This document shows positions 668 through 33,995 of a stretch of DNA of 64,000 bases, piece after piece. The notes under the pieces were generated by a model that saw only the letters and a program-made list of their open reading frames with translations, was not told where the DNA came from and searched no databases. Where the stretch lies: the NCBI GenBank assembly GCA_963819615.1, contig CAWFWW010000004.1:573705-637704 (forward strand). The letters run 5' to 3'. Source of the DNA: an uncultured Alphaproteobacteria bacterium. Its GTDB lineage: Bacteria; Pseudomonadota; Alphaproteobacteria; Rhizobiales; Aestuariivirgaceae. How positions within the stretch are numbered: the stretch's first letter is position 1; each line of letters begins with the position of its first letter. Made by a program: the position numbers and the translations under genes.

Positions 668-766
668 CTGATACCAATCGTCACAACAATTGACCCATTC
701 TTTTCCCTCCCCCCTTGTGGGGAGGGCAATCGCTTATGGCTTTCCTCGCCCGAGAATCGGGAGAGG
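668..766. repeat. Composite REP-like element (CCCTCCCC-TTGT-GGGGAGGG plus CCTCGCCCG..CGGGAGAGG); near-identical inverted copy at 33898-33995
   Basis: Manual alignment with the reverse complement of 33898-33995 shows about 99 bp with only a few differences. Confidence 0.85.
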
Positions 767-784
767 AATGATGAATGACCCGCC

Positions 785-848
785 AGCGGGAGAGGAATGA
801 AGAGTCCCGCTAGCGGGAGAGGAATGAAGAGTCCCGCTAGCGGGAGAG
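785..848. repeat. 27-bp tandem repeat (AGCGGGAGAGGAATGAAGAGTCCCGCT x2.4) built from CCCGCTAGCGGGAGAGG palindromes
   Basis: Two exact copies at 785-811 and 812-838 plus a partial copy, immediately downstream of the purA stop. Confidence 0.85.
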
Positions 849-6171: not shown

Positions 6172-7758
6172 CTAAAACTTCAGCGCCTTAACCTGTTGCA
6201 CTTGCGGAATCTTGCCGACCGCCCAGAGCAGCGAATCCGGCGGCGTTCCATCAACTTCAACCAGGCAGATTGCATTTCCGCCAGCGCTTTCGCGCCCCAG
6301 GTGGAAAGACGCGAGATTGACATTGGCATTGCCGAAAATCGTGCCCAGTGCGCCGATGAATCCCGGCTTGTCGGTGTTGGTGATGTAAAGCATGTTCGGG
6401 CCGAAATCGGATTCCATCTCGATGCCCTTGATCTGGATCATGCGCGGCTTGCCATCGGCAAACACCGTACCTGCAACCGAGCGGTCATATTTGTCGGTCT
6501 TTACCGTCAAACGGATATATGTTTCATAAGCGCCCCGTTGCGTCTGCTTCACTTCATCAACCTTGATGCCACGTTCCTTGGCGGCAACCGGTGCCGACAC
6601 CATATTGACCGTGCCAAGCTGCGCCGACAAAACGCCTGCAAGCGCAGCTGAGGTCAGCGCACGGGTATTCATCTCGCCGACCTCACCGGCATATTCAATG
6701 ACGATGCCGCTGATCGAGTCATCCGTGAGTTGCCCCGCAAAAGAACCAAGCTTTTCCGCAAGCCGCACAAATGGCGTAAGGCGTGGCGCTTCAACAGCGG
6801 AAATCGAAGGCATGTTCAGCGCGTTCGATACCGCACCGCGAACCAGAAAGTCCGACATTTGTTCGGCCACCTGCAGCGCCACGTTTTCCTGCGCTTCATT
6901 TGTGGATGCGCCAAGATGCGGCGTGCACACGACATTGTCCATGCCGAAGAGCTTGTGTGTCGTCGCAGGCTCAGTCTCAAACACGTCAAGAGCAGCACCT
7001 GCAACATGCTTGGCGATCAGCGCATCATAAAGCGCATCTTCATTCACCAGCCCGCCACGCGCGCAATTGATGATGCGCACACCCTTCTTGCACCGCGCCA
7101 GCGATTCAGCGTTGACGATATTGCGCGTCTTGTCGGTGAGCGGCGTGTGCAATGTGATGAAGTCCGCACGTTTGAATATCTCGTCAAGATCAACTTTCTC
7201 AACGCCCAACTCCATCGCGCGGTCCGCCGACAGAAACGGATCGAACGCCAGCACTTTCATCTTGAGGCCAACACCGCGATCCGCAACGATCGAACCGATA
7301 TTGCCGCAGCCAATGACGCCAAGCGTCTTGTTGTAAAGCTCAACGCCCATGAAGCGGTTCTTCTCCCACTTGCCGGCGTGGGTTGATGCATTGGCTTCAG
7401 GGATTTGGCGGGCCATTGCCATCATCATCGAAATAGCATGTTCTGCTGTCGTGATTGCATTGCCGAATGGCGTGTTCATCACCACGATTCCCCGCGCCGT
7501 GGCCGCCGGAATATCGACATTGTCAACGCCGATGCCTGCACGGCCAATGACCTTCAGGCGTGGAGCCGCACTGATGATTTTCGGCGTGACCTTCGAAGCC
7601 GAGCGGATCGCCAGCCCGTCATACTCCGGAATGGCGGCAAGCAGCGCATCCTTGTCCTTGCCGAGATCAGGCTTGTAATCAACATCAACCCCGCGATCAC
7701 GGAAGATCTGCACGGCGGTTTCAGAAAGTTTGTCAGAGACGAGAACGCGGGGTTTCAT
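6172..7758 (-). CDS. serA: D-3-phosphoglycerate dehydrogenase
   Basis: GRAGIGVDNVD, GCGNIG, TPHLGAST and C-terminal ACT domain; start moved to MKPRVLVSD (GGAG RBS). Confidence 0.97.
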   Translation of the reverse strand: MKPRVLVSDKLSETAVQIFRDRGVDVDYKPDLGKDKDALLAAIPEYDGLAIRSASKVTPKIISAAPRLKVIGRAGIGVDNVDIPAATARGIVVMNTPFGNAITTAEHAISMMMAMARQIPEANASTHAGKWEKNRFMGVELYNKTLGVIGCGNIGSIVADRGVGLKMKVLAFDPFLSADRAMELGVEKVDLDEIFKRADFITLHTPLTDKTRNIVNAESLARCKKGVRIINCARGGLVNEDALYDALIAKHVAGAALDVFETEPATTHKLFGMDNVVCTPHLGASTNEAQENVALQVAEQMSDFLVRGAVSNALNMPSISAVEAPRLTPFVRLAEKLGSFAGQLTDDSISGIVIEYAGEVGEMNTRALTSAALAGVLSAQLGTVNMVSAPVAAKERGIKVDEVKQTQRGAYETYIRLTVKTDKYDRSVAGTVFADGKPRMIQIKGIEMESDFGPNMLYITNTDKPGFIGALGTIFGNANVNLASFHLGRESAGGNAICLVEVDGTPPDSLLWAVGKIPQVQQVKALKF

Positions 7759-7786
7759 GGTGGGTAACTCCAAAGTAATCTTCATT

Positions 7787-7912
7787 TTCTTCCCCCTCCC
7801 CCTTGTGGGGAGGGTTGGGGTGGGGTCGGGCGCTTGATCAGAATTGCAAGAAAACCATGCATGGACAGGTCGGAGCGACCCCCACTGAAACCTCCCCACA
7901 AGGGGGAGGGAA
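7787..7912. repeat. REPIN-like element, family A (inverted CCCTCCCCCTTGTGGGGAGGG arms)
   Basis: Inverted palindromic arms around a variable core; same family as 22910-23036 and 23113-23239. Confidence 0.85.
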
Positions 7913-7919
7913 AATCTAA

Positions 7920-9056
7920 CTAGGCCGCAGCTTTCTGCGTCGCCAGAGAATAAGCCCAGTCGAGCCACGGAACGAGCGCCATCACATCGGCCGTTTCAAC
8001 TGTGGCGCCGCACCAGACGCGAAGCCCCGGTGGGGCATCGCGGTAAGCGCCGATATCAAGGGCAACACCCTCTTTCTCGAGCAGCTTCACGACAGCCTTC
8101 GGCACATCTTCTCCGCCGTCCAGCGTCAGGCACACAGACGTGTTGGATTGCGTCGCAGGAACCTTCGCAAGATGATGCGCATAAGGTGTGGCCTTGATCC
8201 ACTGGTCAATCACCGCGGCATTCGCATCTGCCCGCGCCACGAGACCTTTCAGGCCGCCAACCGACTTCGCCCATTCAAGCGCCAGAATGTAGTCTTCAAC
8301 GCACAGCATCGATGGCGTGTTGATCGTCTCGCCCTCAAATATGCCGTCGATGAGCTTGCCGCCTTTTGCCATGATGAAAATTTTCGGCATTGGCCAGGCC
8401 GGCGTATAGGTTTCAAGCCGCTTCACTGCGCGTGGTGACAGGATGATGACGCCATGCGCGCCCTCCCCGCCCAAAACTTTCTGCCAGGAGAATGTCACCA
8501 CATCGAGCTTGGAAAAATCCACGTCTTGCGCGAACGCCGCTGACGTTGCATCACAAATCGCAAGACCTTCACGGGTCGAAGGAATCCAGTCGGCATTGGG
8601 AACGCGCACGCCTGAAGTGGTGCCATTCCAGGTGAACACGACGTCACGATTGAAATCAACTTTGGAAAGGTCTGGCAACTCGCCATAGGGTGCGGTCATT
8701 TTGCGCACATCGGCAAGCTTCAGCTGCTTCACCACATCAGCGACCCAGCCTTCGCCGAACGATTCCCAGGCAAGCATGTCAACACCGCGAGCACCCAGCA
8801 TCGACCACAGCGCCATTTCAACGGCACCGGTATCAGAGGCGGGAACAATGCCGATTTTGTAGTCCGCGGGAACATTCAGGATTTCACGCGTCAGCGTGAT
8901 GGCGCGCTTCAAACGGGCCTTGCCTTCGCCGGAACGGTGCGAGCGGCCTGTGAGCGCTGAATTGAGTTTGGAAGCGTTCCAGCCCGGGAACTTTGCACAA
9001 GGGCCGGAAGAAAATTGGGCGTTTTGCGGCCGCACGGCCGGTTTCTGTAGCGTCAT
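7920..9056 (-). CDS. serC: Phosphoserine aminotransferase
   Basis: [22 protein letters not shown] and [14 protein letters not shown] motifs of alphaproteobacterial SerC; start moved to MTLQKP. Confidence 0.97.
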
Positions 9057-17524: not shown

Positions 17525-18976
17525 TTAGTTAAGACGAGGTGACCAGGCCGGATCCGAGGCAAACCCAGGCGTTTCGATCTTCCGCTCATTATAGCCTGAA
17601 ATATCAACGCTATAGAGCTGCGGCCCGCCATTTTCGCCCGGCGTATCGCGGAAAAACATGACGACCCGGCTGTTCGGCGACCACGTAGGCCCTTCATTAT
17701 GGAACCCTTCCGTCAAAATTCGCTCGCCCGATCCATCCGGCGCCATCACGCCAATTGCAAATTTTCCGCCCGCCTGTTTGGTGAAAGCAATCCACTTTCC
17801 ATCTGGCGACCATACAGGCGTTGAATAGCGGCCACTGCCGAAACTGATGCGATTCTGGCCAGATCCATCAGCCCCCATCACATAGATCTGCTGCGCGCCG
17901 CCACGGTCAGACTCGAACGCAACCTGTGCACCATCCGGCGAAAAACTGGGTGCGGTGTTGATGGCCGGCGTCTCGGTGAGCTGCCGCAATTGCCGCGAAC
18001 GCAGATCAAGTTCGAAAATATTCGAGTTGCGTCCGTCATCGCTTTGCAAGCTCATCACAACGCTCTGGCCATCTGGCGAATAGCGCGGCGCAAAGCTCAT
18101 GTTCGGAAAATCGCCGACGATTTCTTTCTGCTGTGTTTCAATGTTGTAAATGTAAACCCGTGGCACGCCGCTGCCGAACGACATGAAGGTAAGTTCAAGC
18201 GATGTCGGCGAAAACCGGGGCGTCAGCAAAAGATCGCCACTCACTGGCAATGTGCGCGGATTGAATCCATCCTGATCCATGATCGCGAGTTTCTTTTCGC
18301 GCTTGTCCTTTGGGCCAGACTCATTGATGAACACGATGCGTGTGTCAAAATATCCTTCGTAGCCCGTGAGCTCCTTGTAGATCATGTCGGCGATGCGATG
18401 CGCAATCCGCCGCGCATTTTTGGGACTCGCTGCAAAAGTCTGCCCGGCGCGCATGGTTTGAGCATTGACGTCATAAAGCTTGAACGACACCTGTATCTTG
18501 CCGCCAACGGCGACCGCTTGCCCCACGACCAACGCCTTGGCCTGCACCTGCCGCCAGTCGCCATACCGTGGCTCCTGCTCGAAATTCGTGACTTGCTCGA
18601 TGAACGAATCCTGCGGCAACGGCGCGAAATAACCTGTGCTGCCAAGATCGTTGCTGATGACCCCGGCAACAGTCTGCGCCACTTCGCTCGCCTCACCATC
18701 CGCAATGAACGGCGCAATCGCGATAGGCAAAGGATCAATCTGCCCGCCTTGCACGGTGCCTTTGAGTTGAGCCTGGGCGGTGGAGATCAGCGATACCAGA
18801 AAAAACACGCTGGCGATCACCCCAACAACTCCTCCCCGCCCTTGAGGGCGGGGTCGGGGGCGGGTGTCAGCCAAAAAGAAACTCATCCAAGCGCCAGCAA
18901 ATGCGGCTGACACCCACCCCTGCCCCGCCCTCAAGGGCGGGTTGCATTTCAAACAATTCTTCATGGCTATCATCAT
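17525..18976 (-). CDS. tolB: TolB beta-propeller periplasmic protein; start uncertain because a palindromic element lies in the signal region
   Basis: PIAI, AHRIADMIY, DTRIVF and repeated PxFSPDG/PxWSP blades. Confidence 0.96.
   Translation of the reverse strand: MMIAMKNCLKCNPPLRAGQGWVSAAFAGAWMSFFLADTRPRPRPQGRGGVVGVIASVFFLVSLISTAQAQLKGTVQGGQIDPLPIAIAPFIADGEASEVAQTVAGVISNDLGSTGYFAPLPQDSFIEQVTNFEQEPRYGDWRQVQAKALVVGQAVAVGGKIQVSFKLYDVNAQTMRAGQTFAASPKNARRIAHRIADMIYKELTGYEGYFDTRIVFINESGPKDKREKKLAIMDQDGFNPRTLPVSGDLLLTPRFSPTSLELTFMSFGSGVPRVYIYNIETQQKEIVGDFPNMSFAPRYSPDGQSVVMSLQSDDGRNSNIFELDLRSRQLRQLTETPAINTAPSFSPDGAQVAFESDRGGAQQIYVMGADGSGQNRISFGSGRYSTPVWSPDGKWIAFTKQAGGKFAIGVMAPDGSGERILTEGFHNEGPTWSPNSRVVMFFRDTPGENGGPQLYSVDISGYNERKIETPGFASDPAWSPRLN
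18834..18941. repeat. REPIN-like element (family D) inside the tolB 5' region
   Basis: Inverted arms CCCCGCCCTTGAGGGCGGGG..GGGTGTCAGCC / GGCTGACACCC..CCCCGCCCTCAAGGGCGGG; related copy in opposite orientation at 22729-22832. Confidence 0.85.
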
Positions 18977-19926
18977 CAGCGGGACATCATGTTGGGGTTG
19001 AAATCAAGCACGACAGTTTTCCACATGTCGTATTTGTCGGGAGGAAGCTCATAAGGCTCGCAGCCTTTGACCGCAGCAACACCAGCCGCAGCTGTGGCTG
19101 CATAGATTGGATCAGAATAGGACTGCTCAGGCTGAACTGAAGTCACGGTGCCATCGTGAGCAAGGCTGAAACTGATCGGCACGGTAATGTCTGCGTCCCG
19201 CGCGGCAGGTGGAACCGTGAAACACTGTTTGACGCGGGCCACCAGCGCCTCAATCAGCGTTGCCGAAACACTGGCGTCCGCCCCCGCCATCGCCTTCTCA
19301 GCCTTCTTCGGCGAACCAGCTTCCTTGGAATTCACCTGCGTCGTGCGCTCGCCATCTTCCTTGTTGAGGAAGGCCGCAATGTCGTCGAGCTTCAATTCTT
19401 TTTTCTTTTTCTCGGCCAGTTTCTTCTTCTCTTCAGCTTTCTTTTTTTCGTCAGCCTTTTTCTTTTCGTCGGCTTTCTTCTGTTCCTCAGCCTTCTTCTG
19501 CTCGTCAGCTTTCTTTTTCTCGGCCTCTTGCAGGGCAATGAGTTCCTTCAAAGGATCAGAATCGAGCGGCTTTTCCTCAACCTTCTTCGGTTCCTCTTTT
19601 TTGGGCTCTTCCTTTTTCGGTTCCGGCGGCTTCGGCGGCTCTGGTGCCACAGGCTCCTTCATCGCGGTTTTGACTTCTTCCGAAACTTTGGGAGCCGGCG
19701 GCGTCTCCTTCACTACTTCCATCTTCTTCGGCGCGGGCTTTGCCGTCTCCGGAACATCATCTGTCGTTGCCGCAAGCCGCTTCGAGTCATCCGTGATCTG
19801 GCTGATATCAACTTCAATCGCATTGACCGGTGGCGCCTTCAGCGCATTGCTCGAAGGGATGCTGAACAGTGCCAGAGCCAATATGGCCCCGTGGAAAACC
19901 GTCGAAAGGAGGACGCTTTTCTTCAT
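18976..19926 (-). CDS. tolA: TolA cell envelope integrity protein
   Basis: N-terminal TM with the SxxxH motif, Pro/Lys/Glu-rich stalk (KKADE repeats) and TonB-C-like domain. Confidence 0.9.
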   Translation of the reverse strand: MKKSVLLSTVFHGAILALALFSIPSSNALKAPPVNAIEVDISQITDDSKRLAATTDDVPETAKPAPKKMEVVKETPPAPKVSEEVKTAMKEPVAPEPPKPPEPKKEEPKKEEPKKVEEKPLDSDPLKELIALQEAEKKKADEQKKAEEQKKADEKKKADEKKKAEEKKKLAEKKKKELKLDDIAAFLNKEDGERTTQVNSKEAGSPKKAEKAMAGADASVSATLIEALVARVKQCFTVPPAARDADITVPISFSLAHDGTVTSVQPEQSYSDPIYAATAAAGVAAVKGCEPYELPPDKYDMWKTVVLDFNPNMMSR

Positions 19927-21219: not shown

Positions 21220-21650
21220 AGCGCAGTCTTTGCCGCAAGGTGAAACTTTTCTGCCATAGCGGCAGTAATGCGTTGTGGCCGACCTTTGCCATCCACAATG
21301 ACAGCCGTCACTTCAGCCGTGAAAATAAGCTCAGAGCCACGCATCACTCGTTGCGACATTACAAATCGCGCACCTTTGATGTCTTTCGCCACTGACTCCA
21401 CCATCAGTATGTCGTCAAATATAGCCGCCCGCTCGAACTCGCAATCCATCCGCCGGATGACAAAATATTGGCCGGATGCCGCCATCGCATTTTGATCAAC
21501 ACCAACAACCCGCAGCCAGTCCGACCGCGCCCGCTCGCAATATTTCAGGTAATTCGAGTGATAGACCAACCCGGAAAAATCCGTGTCCTCGTAATAGACG
21601 CGAAGGTCGAAAACATGCTTGCCATTTTCAAGGTGGCCGGAAAGCGTCAT
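21216..21650 (-). CDS. ybgC: Tol-Pal-associated acyl-CoA thioesterase
   Basis: [19 protein letters not shown] hot-dog motif; ruvB-ybgC-tolQ synteny. Confidence 0.93.
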
Positions 21651-22687
21651 TCCCCCTCCTCCAGCGGCAGCACACCTTGCGTGATCTCCGCGCGGTTCGG
21701 CACAGCCAACCCCAGATGCTTGAACGCATGGTGAGTCAAAATGCGTCCGCGTGGCGATCGATTTAAGAACCCAAGCTGCAACAGATAAGGCTCAACGACA
21801 TCTTCAATTCCATCACGTGCCTCCGACAACGACGCCGCAATGGTGTCGATCCCAACCGGCCCGCCGCCGAAATTCAACGCAATGCATTTGAGATAGCGGT
21901 GGTCCAAAGCATCCAGCCCGGCATCATCAACATCCAATGCTTTCAAAGCCTTGTCGGCAGCACGTGAATCGATCTGTGAAGCCCCCGCCACCGAAGCAAA
22001 ATCCCGTACGCGACGCAGCAACCGCCCGGCGATACGAGGTGTGCCCCGTGAACGCCGCGCAATTTCCCGTGCCCCATCTTCAGTGACAGGCATCTGCATG
22101 ATCCGCGATCCGCGCCGCACGATGTCAAGCAGCTCATCCTCGGTGTAAAAATCCAGCCGGATTGGAATGCCAAAGCGATCGCGCAGCGGCGTGGTGAGCA
22201 GTCCAGTGCGCGTCGTCGCACCTATCAGCGTAAACCGCGCCAGATCAATCCGCACCGATCTTGCGGCGGGGCCTTCACCAATAATCAGATCCAGCTGAAA
22301 ATCCTCCATCGCTGGATAAAGCACTTCTTCGACAGCCGGATTGAGCCGGTGAATTTCATCGATGAACAACACATCGCGATCTTCGAGATTGGTGAGGAGT
22401 GCAGCGAGATCACCAGCCTTGGCAATCACAGGACCAGATGTCGCCCGAAAATTCACCCCAAGTTCGCGCGCCATGATCTGCGCCAGCGTGGTCTTCCCCA
22501 ACCCCGGTGGCCCCGCAAACAACACATGATCCAGCGCTTCACCGCGCGATTTCGCCGCCTCAATAAACACGCGAAGGTTCTGCTTCTGCTTCGACTGCCC
22601 GACAAACTCATCAAGCTTCTGCGGCCGCAAGTGAGTGTCGAGCGCGTCCTCGGGTTTGGGGGAATGATCAAGGATGGTGCGGGTCAT
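21647..22687 (-). CDS. ruvB: Holliday junction branch migration helicase RuvB
   Basis: [29 protein letters not shown] and [11 protein letters not shown] motifs. Confidence 0.99.
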
Positions 22688-22728
22688 GGACTACTTCCCC
22701 CTCCTCCTGGCGGGGATCAACAAACTCT

Positions 22729-22832
22729 CCCCTCCCTTGAGGGAGGGGTAGGGGTGGGTGTCAGCCCCAAGTGAGATCGAACTTCCATTGCGTGGCTGGC
22801 ACCCGCCCCCGGCCCCGCCCTCAAGGGCAGGG
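22729..22832. repeat. REPIN-like element (family D) upstream of ruvB
   Basis: Inverted arms matching the tolB element in reverse orientation. Confidence 0.8.
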
Positions 22833-22848
22833 AGCTGAACAAACACAC

Positions 22849-23309
22849 TCATCCCGCCGCCAGCTCCTTCAGCGCCGCACGGATCAATTTCTCCGTGGAC
22901 TGACTAAATTTCTTCCCCCTCCCCCCTGTGGGGAGGGCCGGGGTGGGGGTCGGGTGATCTCGCAGAATAAAGTTCATTCCCTTTCTGCCAAGACGGAGCG
23001 ACCCCCACCCTAACCCTCCCCACAAGGGGGAGGGAATGTTCCTTGCAATCCTCATCCCACCGCCAGCTCCTTCAGCGCCGCGCGGATCAATTTCTCCGTG
23101 GGCTGACTAAATTTCTTCCCCCTCCCCCCTGTGGGGAGGGCCGGGGTGGGGGTCGGGTGATCTCGCAGAATAAAATTCATTCCCACTCTGAAAAGCCAAA
23201 GCAACCCCCACCCTAACCCTCCCCACAAGGGGGAGGGAATGCTATTTCCAAACCTCATCCCGCCGCCAGCTCCTTCAGCGCCGCGCGGATCAATTTCTCC
23301 GTGGGCTGA
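22849..23309 (-). repeat. 203-bp tandem repeat: three copies of the last 55 bp of ruvA separated by two family-A REPINs
   Basis: ruvA tail at 22849-22903, 23052-23106 and 23255-23309; the two intervening 148-bp segments align without gaps. Confidence 0.92.
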
Positions 23310-23869
23310 TCATCGCCGCCCTTGTTCATCGCCGCACCCACAGCCATCGCGGCTTGTGATTGCCCGTATCCCAAATTCACCAGCGCCGACACCGCATCCG
23401 TCACCGCTGTCGGCCGATCAGCAGCCAGCTCCGCCGCCACCTGCCCCAGGCCGATATCCGCCGCCGTATAGGCAGGCGCCTTGTCTTTCAATTCGAGCAC
23501 GATGCGTTCAGCAAGTTTCTTGCCAACCCCATTGGCCCGCCCGATCATCGCCTTGTCCTGCAACGCAATCGCATTCGCCACGTCACCCGGCGACAGCACC
23601 GACAAGATCGCCAGCGCCACCCGCGCCCCCACGCCCTGAACAGTCTGCAAAAGCTTGAACCACTCTTTTTCCATGGTACTCGCAAATCCAACGAGCCGGA
23701 TATTGTCCTGGCTCACCAGCATCTCGGTGTGAACCTCGGCAAACTCACCGACTGAAAGCGTCGACAGTGTCTTCGACGAGCACGACACAAAATAACAAAC
23801 CCCGCCCACATCAACCATCGCCCAGTCAGGCCCGGTGGAATCAATGCGGCCTTTCAGTTTTCCAATCAT
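23255..23869 (-). CDS. ruvA: Holliday junction branch migration protein RuvA
   Basis: MIGKLKG, HhH motif LQTVQGVGARVALAIL and DAVSALVNLGY. Confidence 0.98.
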   Translation of the reverse strand: MIGKLKGRIDSTGPDWAMVDVGGVCYFVSCSSKTLSTLSVGEFAEVHTEMLVSQDNIRLVGFASTMEKEWFKLLQTVQGVGARVALAILSVLSPGDVANAIALQDKAMIGRANGVGKKLAERIVLELKDKAPAYTAADIGLGQVAAELAADRPTAVTDAVSALVNLGYGQSQAAMAVGAAMNKGGDDQPTEKLIRAALKELAAG

Positions 23870-24282
23870 TGGTGCATATCAGGCGCAATAATTTCAAGAT
23901 TTGGAAAGTGCCGACGATACCGCTTGGGATCGCGCGTCAACAAACGATAGCCAAGCACTGCCGCATGCGCTCCGATGAAAAAATCAGGCAATGTGCGTTC
24001 CCGATAGCCGCCAGCTCTGCGATAGGCGACATGCGCCATGCCTGCCATGAACGATGTATGCCAGGGTAAATCTTCCAAAGTGAATCCAAAACTCTCCATC
24101 ATGCGCACCAACTCTTGCTCGCTGCCAAACTCTGGCGCAGCTTCAGCGAGGATAATCGGGTTGACGATAACGTCTCCGGCATCGCGCCACCTGACCAAAA
24201 CGTCCTCTGACCAATCATGCCATGCTTGGCCTGGCCGCAAGAGATCCAGCACAACACTGGAATCAGCGAGGCTCGACGTCAT
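23866..24282 (-). CDS. vapC: PIN-domain VapC toxin
   Basis: LADSSVVLD, IILAE, LPDFFIGAHA and LLTRD motifs; stop overlaps the ruvA ATG. Confidence 0.9.
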   Translation of the reverse strand: MTSSLADSSVVLDLLRPGQAWHDWSEDVLVRWRDAGDVIVNPIILAEAAPEFGSEQELVRMMESFGFTLEDLPWHTSFMAGMAHVAYRRAGGYRERTLPDFFIGAHAAVLGYRLLTRDPKRYRRHFPNLEIIAPDMHQ

Positions 24283-24544
24283 CTGCGGGGCCGCGCACGA
24301 ATTCAATGATTTCATCGGTTGACATGCCGGCATAGGCACTGGTCCGCCGGTTGCTTTGCGCAAACGCGTTCATCAGTCGCGCCATCTTTTGGCCAGGCGT
24401 CTCACCGGATTTCTGCTTCTCGCTGACCAATATCATCTGTCCACCTTCTTCTTGAAAACCGACTTCGGACCCCGGTTCAATTCCGAGTTTTTCCCGGATC
24501 TCTTTCGGGATAGTCACCTGACCTTTGGATGTGACGCGGCTCAT
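24263..24544 (-). CDS. AbrB/MazE/SpoVT-family antitoxin
   Basis: SRVTSKGQVTIPKEIREKLGI AbrB signature; overlaps vapC. Confidence 0.9.
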   Translation of the reverse strand: MSRVTSKGQVTIPKEIREKLGIEPGSEVGFQEEGGQMILVSEKQKSGETPGQKMARLMNAFAQSNRRTSAYAGMSTDEIIEFVRGPADDVEPR

Positions 24545-24569
24545 AAGTAATACCTCACCAGTATTACTT
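24545..24569. promoter_or_regulatory. Putative TA autoregulatory operator
   Basis: Perfect inverted repeat AAGTAATAC-N7-GTATTACTT abutting the antitoxin ATG. Confidence 0.7.
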
Positions 24570-24588
24570 CCACAAACCGGCGAACAAG

Positions 24589-25071
24589 TCAAGAACGTCT
24601 GATCCCCCGGTGATGCGCATGGCATATAGCAATCGCCAGTGCATCCACTGAATCCGCCGACTTCAGCACGGCTTTCGGCAACAGCAGCTTCACCATGTGC
24701 TTGACCTGCGCCTTCTCCGCATGCCCTGCCCCTACCACGGATTTCTTGATCACATTTGGCGCGTATTCCGAAACGGCAATCCCGAGTGATGCCGGCGCCA
24801 GCATGACAGCGCCCCGCGCCTGGCCCAGCTTCAGCGTGGCCCGCGCATCCTTGTTGACGAAAGTCTCTTCGATCGCCGCTTCATCCGGCGCATATTCATT
24901 CAGCACACGGATCAATTGCGTATGGATCTGCAACAGGCGCATCGCCAGCGGCGCATCCGCATCCGAATGCACCGACCCGTCAGCGACATAGATGAGCCGC
25001 GATCCTTCGCTGTCAATCACACCCCAGCCGGTATTTCGCAAACCCGGATCAAGCCCGATAATCCGAACCAT
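24589..25071 (-). CDS. ruvC: Crossover junction endodeoxyribonuclease RuvC
   Basis: [22 protein letters not shown] and [11 protein letters not shown] motifs. Confidence 0.98.
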
Positions 25072-33597: not shown

Positions 33598-33712
33598 TTT
33601 GATTTCCCGGCTGCGGCAAAACCATACGCAGAGGCTGCACTCAATCAACTACGAAATCATACCAACAGTCATAAATACTGACTCTTCGGGCTTCAAACGA
33701 GTCTCTCTGGTA

Positions 33713-33995
33713 TTCCCTCCCCCTAGTGGGCAGGGCTATCGCATGTGGACATTTTTCCTCTCCCGCTGGCGGGAGAGGTGTCGCTTGCAAAGCAAGTGAC
33801 GGAGGAGGGGCTTTGGCTCAAGCGGGAAAAAATTTGCCCATTTTCCAGGCTGTGCGAAGCCCCTCTCCGTCTTTCGCGTCTTGCGACGCGAAATTCACCT
33901 CTCCCGATTCTCGGGCGAGGAAAGCCATATCCGATTGCCCTCCCCACAAGGGGGAGGGAAAAGAATGGGTCAATTCTTGTGACGATTGGTATCAG
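33713..33995. repeat. Nested palindromic composite (outer family-A arms, inner family-B arms)
   Basis: Arms at 33713-33778 and 33898-33961 are mutually inverted; 33898-33995 matches 668-766. Confidence 0.8.

Follow-up and report, generated by a model that had tools for sequence, protein, structure and literature searches.

How does an operon take up a long palindromic repeat between two overlapping genes, and why should the end of the upstream gene be repeated along with it? These questions are raised by the ruvA-ruvB junction of an uncultured alphaproteobacterium. In the window, that is, the whole stretch of 64,000 nt that was analysed, the last 55 nt of ruvA (T) are present three times on the minus strand at an exact 203-nt period, in the order T1-A1-T2-A2-T3, where A1 and A2 are copies of one palindromic repeat (REPIN A); a REPIN of another family (REPIN B) lies downstream, followed by ruvB (Table 1). 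Tandem Repeats Finder placed the array at 22848-23309 (period 203, 2.3 copies, 93% matches, 0 indels), and a repeat search returned three 56-nt tail copies (22848-22903, 23051-23106 and 23254-23309) with 95-96% identity, the only three occurrences of the tail sequence within the 64-kb window. The two programs bear out the original prediction of a ruvA tail triplicated at this period with REPINs in between. The flanking genes are readily assigned: RuvA contains the Pfam domains RuvA_N, HHH_5 and RuvA_C (residues 155-201) and matched RuvA chains in the PDB at E=3e-30, and the ruvB orthologue of a near-identical strain (L284) contains RuvB_N, AAA and WHD_RuvB.

REPIN A has the form expected of a REP doublet that folds into a hairpin, with 36-nt arms that are 89% complementary and 46-50 nt apart, each arm ending in its own small palindrome (CCCTCCCC-N4-GGGGAGGG). 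It is 148 nt long and has no coding capacity apart from one frame: A1 is stop-free in a single sense frame (stops by frame 0, 5 and 2), as is A2 (0, 5 and 1). Through this frame run two intact 68-codon ORFs whose ATG overlaps the preceding TGA, as originally described, and both end in Q(P/S)TEKLIRAALKELA(V/A)G. The proposed chain of coupled mini-ORFs stands as far as the overlapping cistrons are concerned, but it is longer than described, a third ORF that reaches ruvB (22691-22852, minus strand) having been missed. The stop/start overlap is ATGA at ruvA/ORF 1, ORF 1/ORF 2 and ORF 2/ORF 3. ORF 3 is also called in L284. The two 203-nt units differ at 15 positions (92.6% identity) rather than the roughly 17 first counted; as first noted, most of them cluster, 13 falling in two patches (unit positions 58-68 and 107-125), which leaves 2 for the remaining 173 nt (98.8% identity). 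Within the REPINs, A2 matches A1 at 90.5% identity, every mismatch lying either in the 5' flank or in the loop, towards its 5' side. The predicted RNA fold of the locus consists of three long hairpins (-364.5 kcal/mol, z=-10). Rfam at permissive thresholds gave nothing beyond sub-threshold similarity to miRNA hairpin families of eukaryotes, the noise that any hairpin produces, and a promoter/terminator scan returned nothing above shuffled sequences. A search for RNA sequencing runs containing the locus returned none.

Table 1. Features of the ruvA-ruvB junction (window coordinates; A and B denote REPIN families, T the ruvA tail)
Feature	Position	Strand	Length	Remarks
ruvA	23255..23869	-	204 aa	From ORF list; T1 is its final 55 nt
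T1	23255..23309	-		Functional ruvA tail; contains AAGGAG and ATGA
Candidate relay ORF 1	23052..23258	-	68 aa	ATG overlaps ruvA TGA; crosses A1; closes at the next ATGA, in T2
REPIN A1	23107..23254	-		15-nt flank; 36-nt inverted arms 23120-23155/23204-23237; loop; right end ...GGGGGAAGAAATTTAG
T2	23052..23106	-		1 difference from T1 (GCG>GTG)
Candidate relay ORF 2	22849..23055	-	68 aa	From T2 ATGA across A2 to T3 ATGA
REPIN A2	22904..23051	-		Arms 22917-22952/22999-23034
T3	22849..22903	-		2 differences from T1
Candidate relay ORF 3	22691..22852	-	53 aa	From T3 ATGA across REPIN B to TAG 3 nt before ruvB ATG
REPIN B and A-like REP remnant	22691..22848	-		B arms 22727-22754/22807-22834; remnant of 26-29 nt at 22691-22716
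ruvB	21647..22687	-	346 aa	Last cistron of the chain

The ancestral state of the junction can be read from relatives. In about 35 related species or genomes of the Aestuariivirga clade, the ruvA TGA overlaps the ruvB ATG (ATGA), so that the last ~18-20 codons of ruvA are at once the final RuvA helix and the translation-initiation region of ruvB. The ATGA of T1 is this former ruvA-stop/ruvB-start overlap, and the ATG opening each 68-codon ORF is the ancestral, displaced ruvB start codon, an identity absent from the first reading. An AAGGAG hexamer 11 nt upstream of the ATGA in the tail is likely a Shine-Dalgarno sequence, a role made uncertain by the insertion-free relatives, in which the hexamer varies from AAGGAG to AAAGAA. 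Immediately upstream of ruvB in the window, the A-like REP remnant at 22691-22716 provides GGAGGAGG; REPIN B brings its own Shine-Dalgarno sequence for ruvB, which might therefore be independent of the upstream ORFs in this strain. A comparison of unit counts among related genomes, as had been suggested, showed that the layout recurs, with zero units in the overlaps of the ~35 relatives, one in L284 and two in the window. RuvA scans of GTDB species representatives and JGI metagenomes (best matches 86-87% identity) revealed no locus with a second tail copy, a DNA pattern of REPIN arm plus tail had 0 matches in the GTDB representatives, and an exact-protein look-up of the window RuvA returned no record. 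Assemblies bearing the module surfaced only through a protein search with the mini-ORFs; such a search returns intact ORFs only, which biases the ascertainment of homologous modules.

We propose, as the probable explanation of this arrangement, that a REPIN came to lie in the former ruvA/ruvB ATGA overlap, that it was tolerated through duplication of the ruvA tail, and that the resulting ORFs act as relays keeping the two genes translationally coupled. In an ancestor, a family-A REPIN acquired a copy of the tail on each side (T-A-T), either by a duplication that accompanied insertion or by duplication of the junction first, with the REPIN landing inside. The upstream tail completes ruvA and the downstream tail keeps a native initiation region before the next gene, while the start codon orphaned at the end of ruvA opens an ORF that the sole stop-free REPIN frame carries across. 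Since this ORF reaches the second tail in the ruvA frame, its stop falls at the second ATGA. Ribosomes leaving ruvA may then re-initiate, melt the ~36-bp hairpin during translation and terminate exactly at the start of the next cistron, which would preserve coupled, stoichiometric synthesis of RuvA and RuvB. The selected trait would be the open, in-phase frame with its terminal initiation region and not the peptide. In the window strain the module occurs twice, and REPIN B, after T3, is bridged once more by an ORF ending just before ruvB.

A T-A-T module is also present in at least five other lineages with RuvA identity of 79-93% (ORF proteins P0003-P0006 and P0009), and the ORF always extends from one ATGA to the next. 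L280 and L284 carry the module too. The gene order is ruvA, ORF, ruvB in L282/L283 and L285 and ruvA, ORF, orfX, ruvB in L281 and L286, with stop/start overlaps throughout the chains of L281-L286. ATG-to-ATG distances across modules are 203, 218 and 224 nt, all 2 modulo 3, and the modules have in common a 48-nt loop and a 16-nt gap between the end of the REPIN and the tail. This identical architecture in all modules suggests one old T-A-T event. The duplicated tail runs further 5' in L281, L282 and L285 (GATGATCAG), and in L286 the first 12 nt of the ORF repeat the start of ruvB exactly (ATGACCCGCACA), so the original duplication may have extended into ruvB. GATGA, found at both unit borders, was considered as a transposase target or as slippage microhomology and rejected, since the longer 5' tail in those three lineages makes the window border degenerate and other copies of the family have no preceding GATGA.

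Could the ORFs be a neutral by-product? The array would then be an ordinary tandem REPIN-plus-flank cluster of the Pseudomonas or E. coli kind, its functionless ORFs open since G/C-rich arms seldom hold stops. Tandem REPIN clusters with flanking DNA are common (PMC3116915, PMC3733652), and a stop-free frame in either direction is found in 85-90% of 45 A-like REPINs whatever their context, with no difference in "any stop-free frame" between operonic and non-operonic REPINs. Openness alone is thus compositional, and phase alone is informative. A period of the correct phase has a chance of 1/3, the peptide sequence is not conserved, and the allele reconstructed from sequencing run X2, in which the loop is 1 nt longer, may be out of phase: its ORF would stop at a TAG at the 3' end of the REPIN, out of phase with T3. 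Against neutrality, the correct and complete frame is present in every complete case at ruvA-ruvB, across four REP families and at least six lineages, the indels are all multiples of 3 (combined P of ~1e-3 to 1e-5), and L280 keeps the terminal ATGA despite the decay of its tail peptide. When the variable parts of the modules were shuffled, the probability of an open frame was 0.15-0.26 per module, giving a product of 3e-4 across 5 lineages. An unbiased set found through RuvA (L007, L008 and L019) carries other REP families, each with a complete ATGA-to-ATGA ORF; together with REPIN B of the window these give a product of 7e-4, multiplied by 1/27 for length phase. One locus counts against the relay explanation: in L024, where the junction reads GTGA and the contig is cut, a stop ends the bridging frame after only 21 codons. 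On balance, we regard a neutral origin of the frames as unlikely, though it deserves serious weight; were it true, the locus would still present a clear REPIN-associated copy-number polymorphism touching a DNA-repair operon.

The original prediction also held that the ORFs might be expressed as peptides that modulate RuvAB, for instance 68-aa products that bind or titrate RuvB through the C-terminal helix of RuvA. RuvA domain III is established to bind RuvB, PDB 1ixr is among the RuvA matches, and the window, L281, L284 and L285 all encode an intact tail peptide, TEKLIRAALKELA(T/A)G. The 5' half of T2 (CGGAGRAATTGATC) is moreover invariant in 8 of 8 modules, although T1 shows synonymous variation in L282, L285 and L286. 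However, the tail comprises only the last ~15 of the 47 RuvA_C positions (it spans RuvA 187-204 only), and neither 68-aa ORF has a Pfam match at E<=0.01. The 50 N-terminal residues are REPIN-encoded, low in complexity and variable; 10 of 68 residues distinguish the window pair, and identity among homologues is 57-67%. Even the tail peptide has decayed in L280 (..LVFTGLVVQ), L282 (QRTEELIGRALKELALG) and L286 (LLSEKLIWLALKELATG), all of which retain the frame and the terminal ATGA, and the identity of T1 and T2 in L281 is explained by gene conversion. With conservation this weak, a function of the peptides appears very improbable, and the tail copy is best read as being maintained for its putative role as the ruvB initiation region.

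The origin of the second unit is illuminated by L284, which has one unit. Upstream, as far as and including T2, the two strains share 99.94% identity; downstream the value falls to 97.9%, the drop coinciding with the array. A one-unit sister allele together with an identity breakpoint at this site fits unequal recombination. The second unit most likely arose by unequal homologous recombination between the tails of two diverged one-unit alleles, the direction of which we infer from the sequence, and not by a second transposition. The rival account, advanced in the original prediction as REP mobilisation iterated twice, is that each insertion of REPIN A duplicates ~55-75 nt of target and that the array records two insertions. 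As predicted, tail copies are linked to the REPIN, with junction direct repeats flanking REPIN A in every module; the 12-nt ruvB-start match in L286 fits a long target duplication, and A1 and A2 differ by 9.5%. These points are outweighed by several others. A1 and A2 have a common non-REPIN 5' flank, are of equal length and differ by 1.2% outside the two patches, which identifies them as copies of each other, and a single architecture is found throughout. The rest of the 64-kb window contains one A-like copy (7786-7912), one B-like copy (18823-18941) and three single hairpins, and no flanking duplication surrounds either REPIN copy. The family-A arm motif is widespread in Alphaproteobacteria (>119 loci), yet 0 of 279 loci searched, 119 of them with this motif, had a long-period tandem containing a REPIN, and other gene-tail-plus-REPIN tandems, for which a scan had been suggested, were found neither around the 119 further family members nor elsewhere in the window. 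Transposase-type or MITE-type target duplications measure 2-14 bp, occur at every copy and accompany terminal inverted repeats, whereas the flanking repeat here is 55-63+ nt. Repeated insertion with long duplication is accordingly quite improbable. Two apparent tandems in the wider search were discarded: a double motif in L213 proved to be a scaffolding gap, and a period-85 repeat in L172 adjoins a REPIN but excludes it.

A mis-assembly of a locus that truly has a single unit was weighed as well. The sister assembly has one unit, and short-read unitigs break within the array. Independent read support for the array is partial: run X1 contains exact words for both distinct tail-to-REPIN junctions (T2-to-A2 and T1-to-A1), and in run X2 a Logan contig of 288 nt extends across A2-T2-A1, with an A2 loop that differs from the window. 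The copies have diverged at 15 positions in exact phase, whereas an artefact would yield identical copies. The junction word of L284, a GTG-bearing tail joined to B, is absent from the window, which marks L284 as a distinct allele and not a collapse. An artefact is very improbable. In a contig of run X4, a ruvA body resembling that of L280 is followed at once by a single tail and REPIN B, with no A unit. Its identity drop at the tail border was considered as the mark of a mobile tail-plus-REPIN unit, an idea weakened by the tail being generally better conserved than the preceding linker (in L002, 96% identity against 75% for the 200 nt before the tail).

As a repeat array, the locus is of a known kind. 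Ordered tandem REPIN or REP clusters that include flanking sequence have been described (Bertels & Rainey 2011, PMC3116915; Di Nocera et al. 2013, PMC3733652), as have the BIME-2 arrays of E. coli. Here, too, a REPIN and adjacent non-REPIN sequence are arranged head to tail in nearly identical units, copy number depends on the strain, and the mechanism of formation lacks an accepted account. Unlike in those clusters, the flanking sequence both encodes the end of one gene and serves as the initiation region of the next, the 1.3-copy form, T-A-T, is shared by lineages whose RuvA identity is 79-93%, and the units are complete cistrons, linked one to another through ATGA overlaps. Integrating elements may carry the 3' end of their target gene, producing attL/attR duplications at the ends of tRNA, tmRNA or protein genes. 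The ruvA-ruvB module resembles them in that direct repeats of a gene 3' end flank an insert, so that the target stays intact and recombination between the repeats precisely restores the empty site. It differs in that no integrase or recombinase is present, its neighbours being ruvA and ruvB, the insert is 148 nt, and the REPIN family is dispersed, with other copies lacking such repeats.

There are parallels on the translational side as well. ATGA overlaps mediate termination-reinitiation coupling, often between subunits of one complex (Huber et al. 2019, PMC6728339; 2023, PMC10666635). The window chain has the ATGA overlap, a likely Shine-Dalgarno sequence of the downstream cistron within the upstream ORF and, as predicted here, a ribosome that unwinds structure before the downstream start. 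The synthetic bicistronic designs attributed to Mutalik et al. in 2013 reportedly use a leader ORF whose translation terminates at the start codon of the gene to be expressed; the leaders here are instead natural, made from a mobile palindrome and a duplicated gene tail, with up to three chained between two subunit genes. REPs near stop codons, as in work ascribed to Newbury et al. (1987) and to Liang, Rudd & Deutscher (2015), are said to modulate translation or mRNA stability. The shared trait is a hairpin within ~15 nt of a stop codon in an operon transcript, but in those cases an untranslated hairpin causes down-regulation or stabilisation, while here the hairpin lies inside an ORF that is apparently kept open. 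A further comparison is offered by the palindromic elements of Rickettsia and by other REP/MITE insertions within genes (Ogata et al. 2000, via PMC10969869 and PMC3733652): a stop-free palindrome is read by ribosomes and tolerated inside transcription units, and a TAG stop is often provided by the end of the REP, which is also the case at REPIN B in the window and in L288. Such elements lie inside a conserved host protein and are read in its frame, whereas the ruvA-ruvB REPINs sit in separate mini-cistrons, with no fusion to a host protein.

We tentatively extend the relay explanation from this junction: it is possible, on the sequences compared, that REPINs of this alphaproteobacterial family settle in tightly coupled operon junctions exclusively in the form of translational relay modules, a selected and general route of absorption. 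In each such module the displaced start codon of the downstream gene would open a stop-free REPIN frame, which would close at a regenerated start or beside it. The tail may have to be duplicated wherever the upstream gene contains the initiation region of the downstream one. Cases may include ruvA-ruvB in at least ten lineages with four REP families, tolA-tolB, hisS-hisZ and the nuo operon. If relays operate at ruvA-ruvB, they would explain how palindromic mobile repeats can lie between overlapping coupled subunit genes without uncoupling them, would add an open in-phase reading frame to the known constraints on REP/REPIN evolution, and would account for a class of small hypothetical ORFs called in REP-rich Alphaproteobacteria. 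Earlier work left the formation and copy-number change of tandem REPIN-plus-flank clusters unexplained (PMC3337134), and the same explanation would supply a concrete route, with junction duplication followed by unequal recombination between the duplicated flanks. If the general form is true, it would be a natural counterpart of synthetic bicistronic design, by which operons absorb hairpin DNA without losing stoichiometric coupling.

ORFs of the bridging type were also observed at other junctions, namely hisS|hisZ and DUF3291|nuoG and, within the window, tolA-like|tolB. The tolB copy (18823-18941) lies in frame, after the ATGA and ahead of the signal peptide, and may be a true in-frame N-terminal insertion.

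The triplicate ruvA tail and exact 203-nt period of the original prediction were confirmed by Tandem Repeats Finder (2.3 copies, 93% matches, no indels) and by a repeat search of the window, which returned the end of ruvA as three 56-nt copies and found two pairs of 36-nt inverted arms in the array. On the minus strand, the order from 5' to 3' is ruvA ending in T1 (the first copy of its last 55 nt), REPIN A1, tail T2, REPIN A2, tail T3, REPIN B of another family, a short A-like REP remnant and ruvB; no further copy of the tail was found elsewhere within the 64-kb window. Both 68-codon ORFs are present as described and their coupled layout is real, but the chain is longer than predicted, as a third ORF of 53 codons that reaches the vicinity of ruvB had been overlooked. 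REPIN B supplies its own GGAGGAGG ahead of ruvB. The two units, each a REPIN plus a tail, differ at 15 positions rather than about 17, and the predicted clustering held: 13 of the 15 fall into one patch in the 5' flank (unit positions 58-68) and another in the 5' part of the loop (107-125), leaving 2 differences in the other 173 nt. RNA folding gave very stable transcript hairpins (-364.5 kcal/mol, z=-10).

Features of the array, its surroundings and two other contigs (window positions unless a contig is named)
Feature	Position	Strand	Remark
ruvA	23255-23869	minus	ends in T1
ruvB	21647-22687	minus	last in the chain
203-nt tandem repeat	22848-23309		Tandem Repeats Finder
Third, different palindrome pair	22727-22754/22807-22834		repeat search
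Third chained ORF, 53 codons	22691-22852	minus	opens at ATGA of T3, crosses REPIN B, TAG 3 nt before ruvB ATG
Loop of A2	22954-22997		divergent in run X2
MazE/AbrB-like antitoxin and PIN-like toxin genes	23866-24625	minus	between ruvC and ruvA; Pfam on L282 and L284 orthologues
PIN gene stop/ruvA start	23866-23869		overlap as ATGA
B-like REPIN	18823-18941	minus	region 18815-18976; directly downstream of ATGA stop/start overlap, tolA-like gene/tolB at 18976
A-like REPIN	7786-7912	minus	region 7757-7968; between serC-like stop (7920) and serA-like start (~7759)
Single REP-like hairpins, same family	698-727, 33712-33738, 33937-33965
27-nt tandem repeat, 3.3 copies	758-848		adjoins hairpin 698-727
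18/36/54-nt tandem repeats	19402-19525		inside tolA-like gene
49-aa ORF between hisS and hisZ	L288 2501-2650		REPIN-A-encoded; protein search
60-aa ORF between DUF3291 gene and nuoG	L287 2501-2683		REPIN-A-encoded, bridging; protein search

The origin of the chained start codons was revealed by relatives. A RuvA scan with one genome per species assigned the window to the Aestuariivirga clade (Hyphomicrobiales), with a best match of 86%. Because the ruvA TGA overlaps the ruvB ATG as ATGA in ~35 of those genomes and in many metagenome contigs, the ATG overlapping the previous TGA in each unit is the ancestral ruvB start codon, carried along with the tail copy. Since an AAGGAG motif lies within the tail 11 nt upstream of this ATG, we infer a dual-use segment, encoding the last RuvA helix and serving as putative initiation region of ruvB.

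A protein search with mini-ORF 2 showed that a REPIN A flanked by two tail copies (the T-A-T module) also occurs in other assemblies, returning five ORFs of 68-75 aa that combine a REPIN-A peptide with a RuvA-tail-like end. The ORF lies between ruvA and ruvB in L282, L283 and L285, is followed by a further gene, orfX, before ruvB in L281 and L286, and stands between ruvA and another ORF in L280, with stop/start overlaps throughout. The RuvA proteins of these carriers are 93% (L280), 87% (L281), 80% (L282) and 79% (L286) identical to that of the window, and module carriers and non-carriers are intermingled. Alignment showed the same arms in all modules, a constant loop length of 48 nt even though loop sequences have diverged almost to saturation, and 16 nt between the REPIN end and the TCAG of T2; this one architecture indicates a single origin. 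The scattered occurrence is consistent with the module being lost easily and precisely when its two tails recombine; some horizontal exchange may have contributed. The first module may have arisen by a duplication accompanying insertion, for example through a double template switch, or by a junction duplication that gave dispensable DNA in which a REPIN landed later. The original duplication may have reached into ruvB, as the first 12 nt of the L286 ORF are identical to the ruvB start.

Frame and phase are conserved among these modules, the peptide sequence is not. Left flanks measure 16, 31 or 35 nt, so that both indels (15 and 21 nt) are divisible by three; from one ATG to the next the modules span 203, 218 or 224 nt, each of which is 2 mod 3. 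Frame 0 contains no stop in any module and the other frames 1-7. When only the variable parts were shuffled, the probability of an open frame was 0.15-0.26 per module and 3e-4 over five lineages, a figure that ascertainment inflates, since only intact ORFs can surface in a protein search. The homologous ORFs are 57-67% identical to the query, and in L280, L282 and L286 the tail peptide has decayed while the frame and terminal ATGA were kept. The suggestion that expressed peptides modulate RuvAB is thus unsupported. In L281, T1 equals T2 with lineage-specific changes present in both alike, which points to gene conversion; the T2 of L282 and that of L286 are unlike the T1 of their own genomes. 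As a separate observation, the 5' half of T2, CGGAG(A/G)AATTGATC, is invariant in 8/8 modules (alignment of the window and L280-L286), and synonymous changes occur in the functional tail T1 of L282, L285 and L286; the invariance of T2 in these three is explained neither by the initiation-region idea nor by gene conversion.

The history of the second unit was informed by L284, a near-identical strain from another NCBI assembly, which reads ruvA-T1-A1-T2 and then directly REPIN B, the 53-codon ORF and ruvB. The word formed at its junction, where a GTG-bearing tail meets B, is absent from the window, so L284 is a genuine allele rather than a collapsed assembly. From ruvC through T2 the two sequences differ by 1 mismatch in 1650 nt, compared to 31 in 1507 nt beyond. 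A copy-number difference that coincides with this identity breakpoint is the outcome expected if two diverged one-unit alleles had undergone out-of-register homologous recombination between their tail copies; a deletion in the L284 lineage could also account for its one-unit state. The proposal of a mobilisation mechanism that duplicates gene tails on insertion, iterated twice, found no support, given one T-A-T architecture across lineages and a doubling that fits unequal recombination. Two Logan contigs added further alleles. The contig from sequencing run X2 covers A2-T2-A1. Its A2 loop is wholly unlike that of the window (14 substitutions and 7 single-base indels), while the neighbouring tail and the covered part of A1 are identical to the window except for one change in T2, 23059 A>G. 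It seems that REPIN loops are swapped, or that they mutate or hypermutate far faster than arms and tails. As reconstructed from difference tables, the X2 allele is 1 nt longer and its ORF would stop at a TAG at the REPIN 3' end. In the X4 contig, a ruvA body that matches that of L280 exactly is followed directly by one tail and REPIN B. Together, these alleles and that of the window establish that 0, 1 and 2 A units exist; independent support for the two-unit array is partial.

Junctions in other relatives mark the site as an insertion hot spot in which every complete insert is spanned by an ORF. They show a plain overlap, orfX or REP-like palindromes of other families. orfX, which lies between ruvA and ruvB with ATGA coupling at either end, encodes a hydrophobic product of ~140-160 aa without a Pfam match. 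Its carriers (L001, L005, L006, L009, L012, L018, L046, L050, L051, L081, L281 and L286) are patchily distributed even between close relatives. In the three complete REP cases, L007, L008 and L019, which were retrieved via RuvA and hence not chosen for ORF presence, the ATG overlapping ruvA lies 254, 74 and 161 nt from the ruvB ATG (all 2 mod 3), and its frame runs without stops to a TGA overlapping that ATG (3/3); the remaining two frames contain 1-3 stops each. In composition-preserving shuffles the probability of an open frame was 0.047, 0.55 and 0.118, respectively, and 0.23 for REPIN B of the window, giving a product of 7e-4 and a further factor of 1/27 for length phase. An exception to this bridging is L024, a cut contig with a GTGA junction, whose frame stops after 21 codons. 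Of 45 A-like REPINs, 85-90% have some stop-free frame in either direction in any context, leaving phase alone as informative.

The best explanation is a conserved module of REPIN and duplicated tail acting as a translational relay, doubled here by unequal recombination. We are highly confident in the module's anatomy and history, and consider the predicted relay function somewhat more probable than its absence. Ribosomes terminating at ruvA would re-initiate on the orphaned start, translate across the hairpin and thereby unfold it, and stop at the following ATGA, which is also the start of the next cistron. The synthesis of both subunits of the complex would thereby stay coupled. Published work documents termination-reinitiation at ATGA overlaps and shows that it depends on very short distances (PMC6728339, PMC10666635). 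A bare 148-nt insert (1 mod 3) after the TGA would bring the frame onto stops in REPIN B, interrupting the chain of ORFs. The 203-nt unit is phase-neutral, so whole units can be gained and lost. In P. fluorescens SBW25, the most frequent higher-order arrangement of REPINs is a tandem array "including the flanking sequences"; such arrays also occur in E. coli, with no formation mechanism proposed (PMC3116915, PMC3337134), and the array as such is therefore of a known kind. In-frame palindromic elements are known in Rickettsia (PMC10969869), and our literature search found no paper tying REP or MITE insertions to translational coupling. Three points appear to be new: a relay-ORF module that is conserved, duplication of a gene tail that doubles as initiation region, and a route by which copy number changes that could be documented.

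Several other junctions resemble this layout. First, the reading frame of the B-like REPIN near tolB continues unbroken to the signal peptide of TolB (MMIAMKNCLKCNPPLRAGQGW...VIASVFFLVSLISTAQA), and the element may be either an N-terminal insertion or a relay before a GTG start with GGAGGAG upstream. Second, the A-like REPIN ahead of the serA-like gene has no stops in that gene's frame, and an alternative ATG further upstream is available at the 3' end of this REPIN (GGGGGAAGAAAATG). Third, two contigs of one ENA metagenome assembly, L287 and L288, carry bridging ORFs that begin at or 2 nt past the upstream stop and end either 1 nt short of the downstream gene or 8 nt inside it; the hisS-hisZ ORF starts at ATGA and its TAG lies 1 nt before the hisZ ATG. 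As further relays these cases are suggestive, with the same ascertainment bias as the module homologues. The ATGA shared by the PIN gene and ruvA indicates that a toxin-antitoxin pair is threaded into the ruvCAB operon by a like overlap. Lastly, the tandem repeats of the tolA-like gene are probably its Lys/Glu/Ala-rich repeat region.
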